Shown here: positions 2,695 through 64,000 of the stretch, one piece after another
Position numbering within the stretch: position 1 is the first letter of the stretch
How the letters are laid out: each line of letters starts with the position of its first letter
Assembly (NCBI GenBank): GCA_964016885.1
Contig: OZ024742.1
Span: forward strand, 237,088,001-237,152,000
Origin: Eledone cirrhosa
Lineage: Eukaryota
Direction of reading: 5' to 3'
Length of the DNA: 64,000 bases
Program-made: the position numbers and the translations under genes
The notes under the pieces: generated by a model
Told to the model about the DNA's origin: nothing
Databases searched by the model: none
What the model saw: the letters and a program-made list of their open reading frames with translations, nothing else

Positions 2695-2885
2695 AGTTTA
2701 TCCCGGGTTCAATCGGGGGTAACCACAGCAAGTAAGGTACTCAATACAAAGCAGAGTATAAATATTTAATATAGAAATGGCTTCTACAGGACTAGAACTA
2801 TTTCATTCGGGAGAAATCATCAGGAAGTCCGATGATTTCTCCCGAATGAAACAGTTCTAGTCCTGTAGAAGCCATTTCTATATTA
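2695..2885 (-). mobile_element. PLE 3'-end hairpin insertion in (TA)n
   Basis: Inverted arms 2767-2821/2831-2885 and unpaired tail 2695-2766, with (TA)n on both sides. Minus strand has CTGATGA..GAAA..GTC (2781-2827). Confidence 0.65.
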
Positions 2886-2924
2886 TATATATATATATAT
2901 ATATATATATATATATATATATAT

Positions 2925-3460
2925 ATCAAAGGTATATATTGAGTTAGAAACTCAAAATAGTCTTACAATTTGAACACATATATGTAAATATCTTTCCTTG
3001 AGCTATTTTATTGTAAGAGACTATTCTGAGTTTCTAACACACAATATATACCTTTGATATATTCGGCTCCATTAATTTGTTGAGCTAATTTAAATGTCGA
3101 GTAAACTTGGCTGCTATGTTTAGTGGTGTGAGTCTGTGAGACACGCTAGGTTCTGATACCATGTGCGTTATTTTATATTCGTACATTATTCAGTTTTTCT
3201 GATATACCTAGAAGTGAGGAGTTTACTCATTTTTGACCCACTGATGAGCAATAAGCATTGGTAAATCTCTTCACAATTAAATTGCGAAACAGCATCGCCA
3301 AAAGCTGTCTGGGTGATTGGTAGTTACCACAATTCCGGTTTGTATTTATTTTTCTTGATTTATTCTTAAATTGAGTCTGGCAAATCCTATTGTCCATATA
3401 ATTAGTATCTTTTTCACCTTAGCGAACCTGGCCCCTTACGATTTGAACACATATATGTAT
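2925..3460 (+). mobile_element. Non-autonomous retrozyme-like unit (474-nt period) with 5' inverted segment
   Basis: tttgaacacatatatgta occurs at 2968 and 3442. 2925-2970 is the inverted copy of ~3011-3060. Full hammerhead inside, no ORF, (TA)n flank. Confidence 0.65.
3236..3314 (+). ncRNA. Type I hammerhead ribozyme
   Basis: accca-CUGAUGA-gcaat...attgc-GAAA-cagc(atcgccaaaa)gctg-UC-tgggt. All core residues and stems I-III are present; predicted cut after C3309 (GUC). Confidence 0.85.
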
Positions 3461-3914
3461 ATATCTGTGTTTATCTCTCTTTTATATTCAATTATATATA
3501 TATATATAAATTATGTGTCATATATATATATATGAGAGAGAGAGAGAGAGAGAGGGGGGGAGAGAGAGAGAGAGAGAGAGAGAGAGAGAGAGAGAGAGAG
3601 AGAGAGACAGAGAGAGATGATAAGGAGTCTTTACTTTCTAAATATAAAACCACGAGTTTTCTGTTCTTTATGAAGTTATCCATTTAATGTCTAAGTTACA
3701 ATGTAACGGAAAAATTCTCAGCTAAACCACCGAAATGTTCTCTTCCAATTTAAAATTCTATTGATTAAATTAAGTGATTGCAATTCTATTTTTCTGTTTA
3801 CCAAATGCCCGAAGCAAAAACTTTGATTTTATGGCTATTTTAACGCAATAAATGTATGACCAGTTATAGCAAAGTTGTATGTATTAATAAACTGGCCGGT
3901 CTTTCCTAAATGCA

Positions 3915-4245
3915 TGTATATATATATATATATATATATATATATATATTATATATATATATATTATATATATATATATATATATATATATATATATATA
4001 TACATATATATATATATATACACATACACACATATATATATATATATATATATATATATATATATATATATATATATATATATATATATATATATATATA
4101 TATATACATATATATATATACATACATATATATATATACATATATATATATACACATACATATATATATATATACACACACACACACACATATATATATA
4201 TATATATATATATATATATATATATATATATATATATATATATAT
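3915..4245. repeat. (TA)n microsatellite with CA interruptions
   Basis: Direct reading. Confidence 0.95.
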
Positions 4246-59650: not shown

Positions 59651-61584
59651 ATTCATTTTGCATTGTCGTAACCTTAAAATAACATTGCTTTATACGCTAA
59701 CAAAATGCTTCAAACAAACTACATCTTTTTATATGTATTATTGCATCTATCCTTCCCACTTACTATCGCCCAAACGCCCATCACTATTGCCACCCATAAC
59801 TAATTTTTTCTGCCAATCTTCCATCTTTATTGCTGATCTTCACATTACTCTCCTCCTATTGTTGTATTTTTATCAATCGTTCTATTCACTGACATACATG
59901 GATCGGCTGAAAAGTTCAAACACCAAGATACTCTCATTGAATTACAAAAGAAGGTTTTATTTTTTGACATATTCCCTGGAAAGAAACAATACAATTATTA
60001 TTAGTTTCCTTTATTTTTTTAGCAGCTATTTTATTGGGGTGCTCCATAATTTCTGTTGAAGAGCTGAAAATGTGGGCATATATTGATTTCTAATTTAGGC
60101 ACAAAGTGGGCATATAGTGATTTATAATTTAGGCACAAAGCTAGCAAATTTAAGGGGATGGCAGTTAATTAAATCAAATTTATCGACCCCGGAATAATTG
60201 ACGGTATTTAAACGCAGAATGCAAAGAGCGAGAACACATACCACAGAGAACAATCCACCAACCTCATAAAGAAAGGAAAGGAGCCGGTCGTGAGATAAGA
60301 CTAAGGAAACAATATTTCTATTGTTGAGACTATCTTCCGATCACAACTCCTAGCAGGAGTAAAATGAAATAAAATATTTTGCTCACGTATACTATACGCC
60401 AGCCAGCCTAGGAAACGAACCTATGACCTTATGATCGTGAATCCAACACCCCTAACCTCTAGGCCACCCACTTACACGGCGTAAGATGCGGTCCATTGTA
60501 CTATTTACTTTGTTTTTAACCCAACAACACAGGTACTACTTTTTATTTATTTTATTTCTGAAGACTTTTTCCTTCTTTATAAATTTCTTTCTGTTTATTG
60601 TAAAACTAGTTTGGCAGGATTTGAACTCAGAATGCAACGAGTCAGAATAAACATTGCAAGACGTTTTAATGACTGGATTCGCTACATACATATCAAATAG
60701 TAGCTGAATATTTCAAGTGAAGGTGCGTGACTTAGCTTTAAGGGTGTTCGGCTCATAATTGCATAGTTGTGGCTTTGATTCCCGGCAGCGCGTTGTGTCA
60801 AGAACCTTCGTTTCGCATTACTCTAGTGTCCAACCTGACATTCAAAGAGCCAATCTTGTGTCATGCTGAATCTCCCTCAGAACTAGGTTAAGGCTACACA
60901 TTTGAAAAAAAATTATAGTTGTAATTAAAAGGGTCGAACATTGTTACATACTGTGTTACATTGATTTCCCGTTAAGGACGCCCGTGTCTGTGGAATACTC
61001 AACCACTTCCATGTTAATTTCACAATCATGAAACACTCTTCATCGGAACCGACAGAGATGCAACGCATTTCAATGACATTGTCATAAACCGTGTCACGCT
61101 GAATCTCCCTGAGAACAACAGTATATACGTGTTTGTGGAATACAAACCACTCGCACATTGATTTCACAAACAGGCTGTTCCGTTGTTCAAACAAATGTAA
61201 CACTCCTCGTCGTAACTGATGGAGGTCCAACAAATGTTAACAACCACATACTATTTACACTAAGCTTCCAGCCTAAAGAGAACAACACACATATCACTTT
61301 TAGAAATCTTTACAGAAGAATTTATCTCATGCTTTATAAATCTTCTCTCTGTTGTAAAGAGTTATCTTCTCACCAATGAGTTAACTCTCACAGCACATAC
61401 AGCTGGTCTCAATGAGAGGTTCTAAGTTGGATAAAAATAGAAAAGTAAATCACGAACAAGTATTGAATAACTTCTTTCTTTCTCCAAACTCAGGTAATTT
61501 ATCGATGAAGCAATAATACTGCGATTTTATGCAAGAGGTACTACTAATTCACTACTGTTATCGAAGTATGTTTGTGTGAATATC

Positions 61585-62362
61585 ATATATACATACATAC
61601 ATACATACATACATATACACACATATACACACATATACACACACATATATATATATATATATATATATATATATATATATATATATATATATATATATAT
61701 ATATATATATATATATATATATATATATAATGTACATATATATATATATATATATACACATATATGTATATATGTATATAAAAATATGTATATACATATA
61801 TATATATATATATGTATTTATATGCATATATATACATACTATGCATATATATATACGTATGTATATGCATATGTATACATATATGCATGTATATGCATAT
61901 ATATATATATATACGTATATATATATATATATATATATATATATATATGCATATATATATATATATACATACGTATATATATATATATATATATATATAT
62001 ATGCATAGTATGTATATATATATATGCATATACATACATATATATATATATGTATATACATATATATATATATATACATATATACATATATGTGTGTATA
62101 TATATATATATATATATATATATATATATATATATATATATATATATATATACATATATACATATATATATATATATGTACATATATACATGTATATACA
62201 TATATGTATATATGTATATATAAATATGTATATATGTATATATATATGTGTGTGTGAGAGAGAGTGTATGTGAGTGTCTGTGTGTATATATATATATATA
62301 TATATATATATATATATATATATATATATATATACATATATATATATATATATATATATATA
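61585..62362. repeat. Compound CA/TA/TG microsatellite
   Basis: Direct reading. Confidence 0.9.
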
Positions 62363-63198
62363 GTGCAAATTTGGACGGGAACGAAACAGAGAGGCAGACA
62401 AATAAAGGTTTATTAGGTTCACACACACACACACACACACACACACACACACACATATATATATATATATATATATATATATATAGCCACACAGTGTGCT
62501 ATGCACAAACCTTTCATGAGAAAATACTACAACAACATTGTTGTAGGAATTATAATGTTTTTTCGATCCAAAGCTAAACTATTTTGCTTTTTTCTTTTTT
62601 GTTTTGTTGCTACCTTCTTATTTTTATTTGCAATATTCCTATCACTTTTGGTAATGAAATATCAATAAGAACATTCTAAAAATAGAAGCCTTGTGTGAAT
62701 GAGAGACTAGCTGAGATAAACCAATAAAAATACAACGTGCAGATTATGCTCGAAACTGGTTGTTTACCAACAGAGGATTGAAAAGGAAAATCTCGGTTCA
62801 GTTTCTACAAGCTGAATATTATCACAAAACCTACACAACAATAACAACGACAAAAATACATGTGCATAAACACATATAAACACATAAAGATTGAAATATG
62901 TATTATATAGATGTAGGAATATGGGTATGTAGTTAATGTTCCAGGTACAGTCCTACTGAGTGGCACCTTTTACAAGTGTCTTGTAATATAGACTCGGTCA
63001 GACCAGTAACTTATGAGTGAGGTTTGTTTGACAGACTCTATAGAACCCCACCTACTCTCTCTCTCTCTCTTTCTCTCTCTCTCTCTCTCTCTCTCTCTCT
63101 CTCTCTCTCTCTCTCTCTCTCTCTCTCTCTCTCTCTCTCTCTCTGTCTCTCTCTCTCTCTCTCTCACTGTATATATATATATATATATATATATATAT

Positions 63199-64000
63199 TT
63201 CGTTTCTGAATTTGTTTAGCAAGATTCTTTATCTGAAAACGTGTGTTGAAACCGATATTGTTATACTTTGGGAGGGTCATGTTGCCAATAAGAAACACAC
63301 GCACCAGAAGCTTTCACTCCAGTTTATTATAAATTTTAAAACAAATTTTTTCCAAAAATTTATAAATTTCCGGTTTATTGGTTAGTTCCACAACCGGACG
63401 GTTGTTCATATATTGTCAAAGTTCTTTCGTCACACATTCTGTGACCTCTTCAGTGACTGTGGATTTTCTTCTTTGTTTTGTGCCTCTCCTTTGTTCTGTC
63501 CTACGCCATCTTGTTTTTGTGTGTGTTGTGTGCTTAGTTTGCGCATGTGTTACATCCGGGTGTCTGTGTGTGTTTTTATTTGTTTATTTATAGTGTCTCA
63601 CCTATGTACACTATATTCTTAAGACTATAGTGTACATAGGTGAGACAGCTCGTAGTATAGGAGAACGGTTAAATGAACACTGGCGAGAGCTTCAAGATAG
63701 AAAAGAATCATCAATACTCCACCAACATGCTAAAATAGAACATAAGGGCAAATTAGAGAACATAGAAATAAAAATAAAATCTACACACAGAAAAGACGCA
63801 ATGTTTAGACAAATCACAGAGGCAATAAACATAAATGAACTCCAACCAAATTAAATAGAAAACATGAATTGAATAGCAACATCACAACTTAGAATTAAGG
63901 ACAAAATGAAAACACACACACAGAACAAACAACCAACCAGTAACATGTAAATAAACAAATAAATAAACAAATAAAAACACACACAGACACCCGGATGTAA
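63199..64000. mobile_element. PLE family A tail-out inverted insertion with GIY-YIG fragment (runs off window)
   Basis: Plus 63630-63890: VYIGETARSIGERLNEH..HQH..EH..RQITEA.NIN...LN. Minus 3' end 63199-63600 with hammerhead-like gtca-CUGAAGA..GAAA..tgac (63415-63457). Confidence 0.85.

Follow-up and report, generated by a model that had tools for sequence, protein, structure and literature searches.

The DNA analysed here, a stretch of 64,000 nt from contig OZ024742.1 of the Eledone cirrhosa assembly GCA_964016885.1 (positions 237,088,001 to 237,152,000, referred to below as the window), carries many inserts of Penelope-like elements (PLEs), in which two copies of an element's 3' end are joined head to head between runs of TA repeats, written (TA)n. 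The window has a GC content of 33% and many TA runs, and the assembly measures 3.0 Gb. In these inserts one arm ends at the tip of a terminal tail (a T end, on a T arm) and the other at an internal site (an I end, on an I arm), with both ends adjoining (TA)n. This is a real and abundant feature of known elements whose anatomy has already been published: earlier work has described arms joined head to head, a tail on one side, targeting of (TA)n and two internal starts of reverse transcriptase (RT) (PMC8557442; PMC3846280; PMC11167929), and the route to inverted, one-tailed inserts has been named as an open question (PMC8557442). What appears to be new in the literature searched, which lay mostly outside subscription journals and held no account of a pairing rule or start box, is the strict pairing of T with I ends, together with the internal nature of both ends in Hydra elements and a repeated start box.

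Head-to-head inserts in the window

A first-pass annotation, made from the letters of the sequence, had named 12 inserts with one tailed arm and one internally ending arm, and all 12 proved to be TA-flanked head-to-head pairs with a tail of 45-161 nt on one arm and the other arm flush with TA. They were recovered by self-comparison with microsatellites masked, and the polarity of open reading frames (ORFs) in the inserts at 40333, 35092 and 4461 places the 3' ends outward. One such example is the family H insert at 40333-45515, where a T arm at 40333-43051 (tail 40333-40440) meets an I arm at 43052-45515 with 3 mismatches in 2463 nt, plus indels. A 5'-truncated frame for RT and endonuclease (EN) of this family, at 40986-43109 on the minus strand, contains DKT and YRDD motifs, a CxCx5C linker, CxxC and CxH, and no CCHH. 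In the family G insert at 35092-39989 (T arm 35092-37664; I arm 37665-39989; ORF fragment 36518-37678, minus strand) the arms differ by 1 mismatch and one 36-nt duplication. The family D insert at 4461-5633 joins a T arm at 4461-4897 (tail 4461-4621) to an I arm at 4898-5633, which includes the EN C-terminus and is about 460 nt longer at its 5' end.

Family A is represented at 10763-10958 (tail 10763-10842, with the junction at a family A 5'-end hot spot near 10895), at 21338-21523 (tail at the left) and at 46460-46638 (tail at the right, 46559-46638). Family B contributes the insert at 4246-4447, with a tail at 4246-4305 and arms of about 80 nt each, and that at 63199-64000, whose T arm spans 63199-63591 and whose I arm leaves the window and ends at 64266 in the joined neighbour; a B-related subfamily insert at 46774-47340 has a 45-nt tail that starts about 15 nt short of the tip in two other copies. 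The family F insert at 32102-32369 has its tail at 32102-32167 and a short I arm at the right end, and that of family C at 2695-2883 has its tail at 2695-2768, arms joining near 2826 and an I end at 2883, with a hammerhead-like core in the arms recognised by eye only. In the family E insert at 9087-9463, the I arm (9087-9268) precedes the T arm (9265-9463, tail 9376-9463).

Three further inserts have non-overlapping arms. At 8597-8780 (family E) the T arm stops within the tail (8597 to about 8667) and the I arm spans 8671-8780; at 9511-9743 (family E) an I arm at 9511-9679 is followed by a partial tail at 9680-9743; and at 8805-9016 there is probably a third, a B-related I arm on the plus strand ending at 9016, whose first 6 nt are like the tip of the B tail and possibly form a minimal T arm. 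Between 8597 and 9743 five PLE inserts are stacked, each within another's TA flank; inserts appear to keep or renew their own targets. The TA runs adjoining ends have a median of 22, compared with 13 for all runs.

The first assignment of the arms to PLEs is upheld by ORFs and motifs contiguous with them. Long Penelope-like frames (RT plus GIY-YIG EN) are found in families H and E, and fragments contiguous with arms in A, D, G, M and B; families C and F have the same anatomy with no ORF linked to them. Clades were assigned by motifs, on which families A, D, E, G, H and M are classed as Hydra-type PLEs: RWK and DKT are found in H, RWR and DKT in E and RWK in D, and the C-termini of H, G and E have no CCHH, a CxCx5C linker, and CxxC and CxH around a conserved E and N. 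These features agree with the published definition of the Hydra clade, in which RWK is present and DKG has become DKT. By its motifs, family B is classed as a CCHH-type PLE, the long arms encoding a C-terminal EN with CCHH and a Cx4CxxC linker, in keeping with the CCHH and CX2-5CxxC linker of the Neptune/Nematis clades. Since B is CCHH-type and those six families are Hydra-type, the pairing of T with I ends spans at least two PLE lineages. A Pfam search with the family-H frame gave no match; the frame has 53 relatives at 31-41% identity. The H unit is 3115 nt long, has pseudo-long terminal repeats (pLTRs) of 96-1191 nt and forms partial tandems with inverted 5'-truncated partners, and tandem copies also occur in D, E, G and B.

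Hammerhead ribozymes gave no Rfam match at the gathering score; hammerhead-like matches were obtained with our own descriptor in B and G only, with a looser pattern in D, and by eye in the cores of A and C, and none was found in family H. Family C arms (for example at 2826) stop about 5 nt before a hammerhead-like CTGATGA core, apparently at the start of stem I, and family C, with no long copy tied to an ORF, is possibly a minimal non-autonomous element. At 8078-8581, a perfect palindrome of 142+142 nt followed by a tRNA-like segment (8415-8485, Rfam 37 bits) and a third arm copy ending at TA is possibly a tRNA-headed non-autonomous element using the same machinery.

Two fixed ends per family and their pairing

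The pattern seen in the window recurs across a sample of 1.264 Mb of unselected genome, which consists of the window joined to a 200-kb neighbour and of five 200-kb blocks from other contigs. Among 177 inverted short-range pairs in this sample, 86 abut TA directly at one end and lie 30-200 nt from it at the other, where about 1 is expected by chance (background rates 1.9% and 14.5%), and the tailed/flush pairs fall into 32 clusters. TA-adjacent ends were classed against a library built from tailed/flush candidate pairs as the training set; the microsatellite-like families F10 and F26 were left out before pairing, and 14 candidates were left out of the library. This gave 173 T and 175 I ends. 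Same-family head-to-head pairs were T+I in 113 of 115 cases and I+I in two (one of them across unrelated TA runs), with no T+T, and pairs beyond the training set were T+I in 42 of 44.

The anatomy had been called rule-like, which holds for the pairs and not for every insert. By the library method 118 of the 348 ends are without a partner (60 T, 58 I), and the library is blind to families that make symmetric inserts only. There are 8 symmetric inserts in the sample, which account for 8 of the 14 flush/flush pairs, and two symmetric inserts have the box motif described below in both arms and are tail/tail-like (C1 block, 33539-34018; C7 block, 98378-99083, in joined-block coordinates). Among 34 young family-H inserts (core of at least 200 nt), 19 are two-armed, all of them T+I, some with T arms of only 12-25 nt; the other 15 are single-armed (5 T, 10 I), mostly with the 5' end joined straight to TA. 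Second priming in family H looks optional, or its product has been lost. The density of pairs in the sample is about 89 per Mb, which would correspond to roughly 270,000 genome-wide if the sample is typical.

As had been anticipated, the 3' endpoints of a family form two sharp peaks in core searches, and raw reads contain the internal one. The endpoint searches used the arm core only, so that there was no selection for the tail. Arms end at the tip or the internal site in 33 of 33 cases in H and in 30 of 32 in D, and in family B the ends fall at query positions 1-9 or 57. In three raw Illumina runs of restriction site-associated DNA bearing the same species label, which were used for family A with the tail tip unscored as a skipped repeat, the largest listed loose end of the arm is TA at the internal site (3724 of 24369, 3513 of 24564 and 3309 of 26968 reads), and 11 of 14 listed strand-switch joints have one side at the 5' hot spot. 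Read depth drops more than 10-fold past this hot spot, and a pile of read ends at 1643 is probably a restriction site. Because the raw reads contain the fixed internal end and the hot-spot joints, the family A structures are not artefacts of assembly.

The short arms of families A (10895 in the window) and M (11596) pile up at one 5' position in a TTAGT context, which we take to be initiator-like, and four perfect run-off palindromes at this hot spot have a single G or C at the centre. The bases before the family A hot spot that differ from the master are G in 13, C in 10, T in 10 and A in 3 cases, many of them explicable by the partner arm and some from junctions counted twice, and only 3 of 30 family M loci stop at the hot spot. 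These data are at most weakly suggestive of a capped transcription start with a cap-derived G. A lone T arm of family M lies at 11437-11898.

Start sites, arm extents and the source of the arms

The tail tip had been taken to be the terminus of the RNA, a view that tandem copies of H, D, E, G and B overturn, as in these the sequence is read through the tip into the 5' leader of the next unit; a fixed unit end or obligatory RNA terminus at the tip is thereby ruled out. The distance from tip to ATG is 49 nt in H, 47 in D, 48 in E and about 80 in G. Either arm may exceed one unit in length, so the template may be multimeric or circular. At the tip, element and TA run match over 2-5 nt in all five of these families. 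At the internal site, the microhomology proposed earlier is present on average, with a family mean of 2.8 nt against 1.0 at random junctions (21 families, p=4e-5), although family D departs from it.

Both starts lie at TA or AT, mostly 6-11 nt before an NCTC…GAGY motif. When the box at I is defined as N[C/T]TC within 2-12 nt followed by a complementary GA-containing 4-mer, it is found in 15 of 22 family representatives, compared with 2.5 in shuffles (maximum 9 in 2000). Twelve of these boxes pair at all four positions, the first pair varying between A-T and G-C, and there is one GTTC/GAAC case. In family G, the internal box at 35140-35184 (minus strand) has TAT, with ACTC 7 nt past the TA start and GAGT 17 nt beyond, and a predicted hairpin of -8 kcal/mol (z -1.8). 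A box also follows the T tip in all four Hydra tandems (H, E, D and G); that of family G was predicted before the sequence was seen and was then found 8 nt past the tip. The strict pattern has just three occurrences along the 3115 nt of the H unit (I, T and one further place), and random positions match it at 0.7-2.4%.

Arm extents were measured on curated references, which resolved 86 of 109 inserts, the 23 unresolved being excluded. In 32 inserts the I arm extends 5' beyond the T arm by more than 10 nt, in 15 the T arm extends beyond the I arm by as much, and in 39 the two are within 10 nt; beyond 30 nt the counts are 26 and 7 (p=0.001), in agreement with the earlier proposal of two independently primed cDNAs. 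In 11 of the 86 the T arm goes no further than the tail, and the arms overlap hardly or not at all. At most junctions the overlap or insertion amounts to 0-5 nt. Of 50 inserts from families H, D, B, E and G (two complex H inserts having been left out, and the D, B and H sets coming partly from searches favouring young copies), 16 have near-equal 5' ends, compared with 5.8 by within-family permutation, and none of 20000 permutations reached this number.

The two arms of a locus share a common source. Arm distances within and between loci are 0.024 and 0.150 in E, 0.035 and 0.159 in B, and 0.058 and 0.121 in A, arms of one locus are also the closer in family C, and 84 subfamily variants in E and 54 in B are common to both arms. 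Pervasive gene conversion between arms was considered and rejected, locus-only variants being one-armed or shared in the ratios 20/0 in A, 13/1 in B, 23/7 in E, 12/1 in M and 5/7 in C (4 loci only).

The window holds other features as well. A degenerate Hydra-type RT fragment at 24802-25905 (minus strand), outside the listed inserts, has about 48% identity to the family-H frame, and other retroelement fragments lie between TA runs at 5682-7436, 17482-17933 and 58329-58712, the last of which matches Pfam RVT_1. An open frame of 181 residues at 48393-48938 (plus strand), with one hydrophobic stretch followed by a basic patch, is probably a host exon of a membrane protein.

Routes to a one-tailed inverted insert

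The reading we favour has a single RNA serving two reverse transcription events, one at each of two tandem start boxes, with the 3' ends of the cut (TA)n as primers, a proposal drawn from sequence comparison for and against which we hold the balance to be even. GIY-YIG domains would cut both strands of the self-complementary TA repeat. Two RT units would then be loaded, the first on the box that follows the internal site and the second on that following the tail tip, and each (TA)n primer would pair over 2-5 nt with the UA or AU just before its box. PLE RT is not known to have RNase H. The internal RT would lead and the tail RT would follow, displacing the first cDNA and leading to a duplicated arm, after which a template jump or short microhomology would link the two cDNA ends; where only one end primes, a single-armed copy would result. 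Since one RNA cannot host two starts at the same site, T+I exclusivity would follow, and twin priming on one RNA would further account for 1:1 stoichiometry, a bias towards longer I arms, and coupled ends. More tentative, and in our judgement somewhat more likely to fail than to hold, is the wider proposal that Hydra-type RNAs carry two conserved RT start boxes (UA plus a CUC/GAG stem), that an RT-EN dimer loads one unit per box of a single RNA, and that programmed twin priming is the normal route of integration.

In the twin priming of L1, too, a single RNA is primed by both ends of the target, and joining of the two cDNAs produces an inversion. There, however, microhomology picks a second site that varies, and the cDNAs are mostly non-overlapping, whereas the inserts described here have two fixed sites and often a long overlap. 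Another system has been described in vitro for the Poseidon element PAc of Anolis, in which both strands of an AT-rich target are cut and extended, a dimer is predicted, and two internal RT starts correspond to the ends of the tail, with no link to insert architecture drawn in the available text (Frangieh et al., 2024; PMC11167929), a finding that the first-pass annotation did not take up. The PAc starts are located within the ORF, at 111-118 nt or more, and are described as non-homologous to the target and free of strand preference (PMC11167929). Those described here are instead found in the 5' leader, with the T tip 47-80 nt ahead of the ATG, have 2-5 nt of TA homology, are followed by a repeated motif and occur as one of each per insert. 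For the Hydra clade of C-terminal EN+ PLEs, earlier work reports inverted partners, targeting of (TA)n and a tail that is often confined to one end (Craig et al., 2021; PMC8557442); the tail, given as 30-40 bp compared with 38-161 nt here, is ascribed there to EN resolution, and the available text holds no pairing statistics or start-site motif. Opposite-strand hammerhead pairs have also been described, and circular templates proposed (Cervera and de la Peña, 2014). In the available parts of an Octopus repeat paper, a retrozyme preprint, a curation guide and a D. virilis paper, the pairing is not treated.

Several observations weigh against twin priming on a single RNA. For Poseidon, initiation is reported to lack homology with the cut DNA and to use start sites that do not differ between strands (PMC11167929). 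The family D internal site shares just 1 nt with the TA run and has neither TA nor a GAG partner, and the D box at T needs relaxed spacing; family B has no box at the T tip and an imperfect one at I, its sites sharing only a 6-nt start. Box stems are weak or unfolded in 4 of 7 predictions (z +0.6 to -3.0), and given these weak predicted folds the box may be a protein-stabilised or a sequence signal. Near-equal 5' ends are lacking in 34 of 50 inserts, and within- and between-locus arm distances in family M are alike (0.060 and 0.068). In family A, one-arm variants found at other loci number 47 compared with 41 shared by both arms; part of this is due to query selection and recurrent CpG change, although a few loci look discordant. 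In family E, the test of tail against I arm is borderline (r=0.29, p=0.053), with three non-overlapping loci grouped alike by both parts. Moreover, arms of the same source fit one RNA molecule or two RNAs of one locus alike.

The latter case, in which an asymmetric complex copies two RNAs of one source locus, each a single time, starting one at the tail-tip box and the other at the internal box, amounts to the model of the first-pass annotation with its terminus corrected. It is rather unlikely in our estimation, yet it is the rival that survives best. Strand displacement would be unnecessary, both arms can be very long and very unequal (2899/170, 57/3304 and 3626/2563 in H), and the one-arm variants of family A do occur at other loci. 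However, an extra rule would be needed to keep a symmetric target from receiving T+T or I+I, the coupling of 5' ends outside the hot spots (911/911, 155/155, 254/250) would be unexplained, and no clear cross-subfamily hybrid was found in E or B. The first-pass annotation had suggested two RNA templates, which are not required: a single RNA engaged twice is at least as good a fit to the strict exclusivity, the subfamily variants common to both arms and the coupling of 5' ends.

Less probable again is that both arms start at the tail tip and one is later trimmed by the element's own EN at the TA-like internal site, in line with the origin of the tail proposed in PMC8557442. The internal site does resemble the target, a few symmetric tail/tail-like inserts exist, and PLE endonucleases have been shown to cut their own pLTR region (PMC11167929). 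Against trimming, both sites are followed by the same box and the T tip, too, is internal; copies with an I arm alone are common, making up 10 of the 15 single-armed inserts of H; and Poseidon RT starts in vitro coincide with the tail ends (PMC11167929).

Folding back of a cDNA, which then self-primes and is copied until a halt at the internal site, has been proposed in the form of self-priming on an antisense template for Penelope elements of the rotifer Adineta vaga, which likewise have head-to-head inverted pLTRs, palindromic junctions and a tail on one inverted pLTR (Arkhipova et al., 2013; PMC3846280). Perfect or near-perfect palindromes are common here (39 of 86 within 10 nt) and arms share variants, so that fold-back may account for some inserts. 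It requires, however, that the tail-less arm lie wholly inside the tailed one, and either arm can include sequence that its partner lacks. Simple fold-back is thereby excluded for at least 32 of the 86 inserts, those with a tail-less arm more than 10 nt longer at its 5' end; the 11 inserts with little or no arm overlap and the longer tail-less arm of the window insert at 4461 are likewise at odds with it. As a general model fold-back is refuted by arm extents, being viable only for the near-symmetric class, and we consider it very improbable. That the palindromes are fold-back chimeras of sequencing or assembly, or TA-targeting miniature inverted-repeat transposable elements (MITEs) with terminal inverted repeats, is scarcely credible: palindromes beside (TA)n are artefact-prone and some symmetric inserts are unclassified, yet endpoints are family-specific and asymmetric, arms range from about 10 nt to more than 3 kb, have diverged independently and enter RT-EN frames when long, so that a MITE or other DNA transposon with such repeats was rejected, and for family A the raw reads refute a chimera.

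Twin priming of a single RNA thus remains the account we prefer, and the T+I rule together with the start box leads to specific mutations and readouts, making the question of insertion directly testable. The inserts are a large component of this genome, of which many could pass for MITEs or assembly errors. If true, programmed twin priming would explain the tail, the inverted pLTR and the one-sided pairing of these elements in one step.

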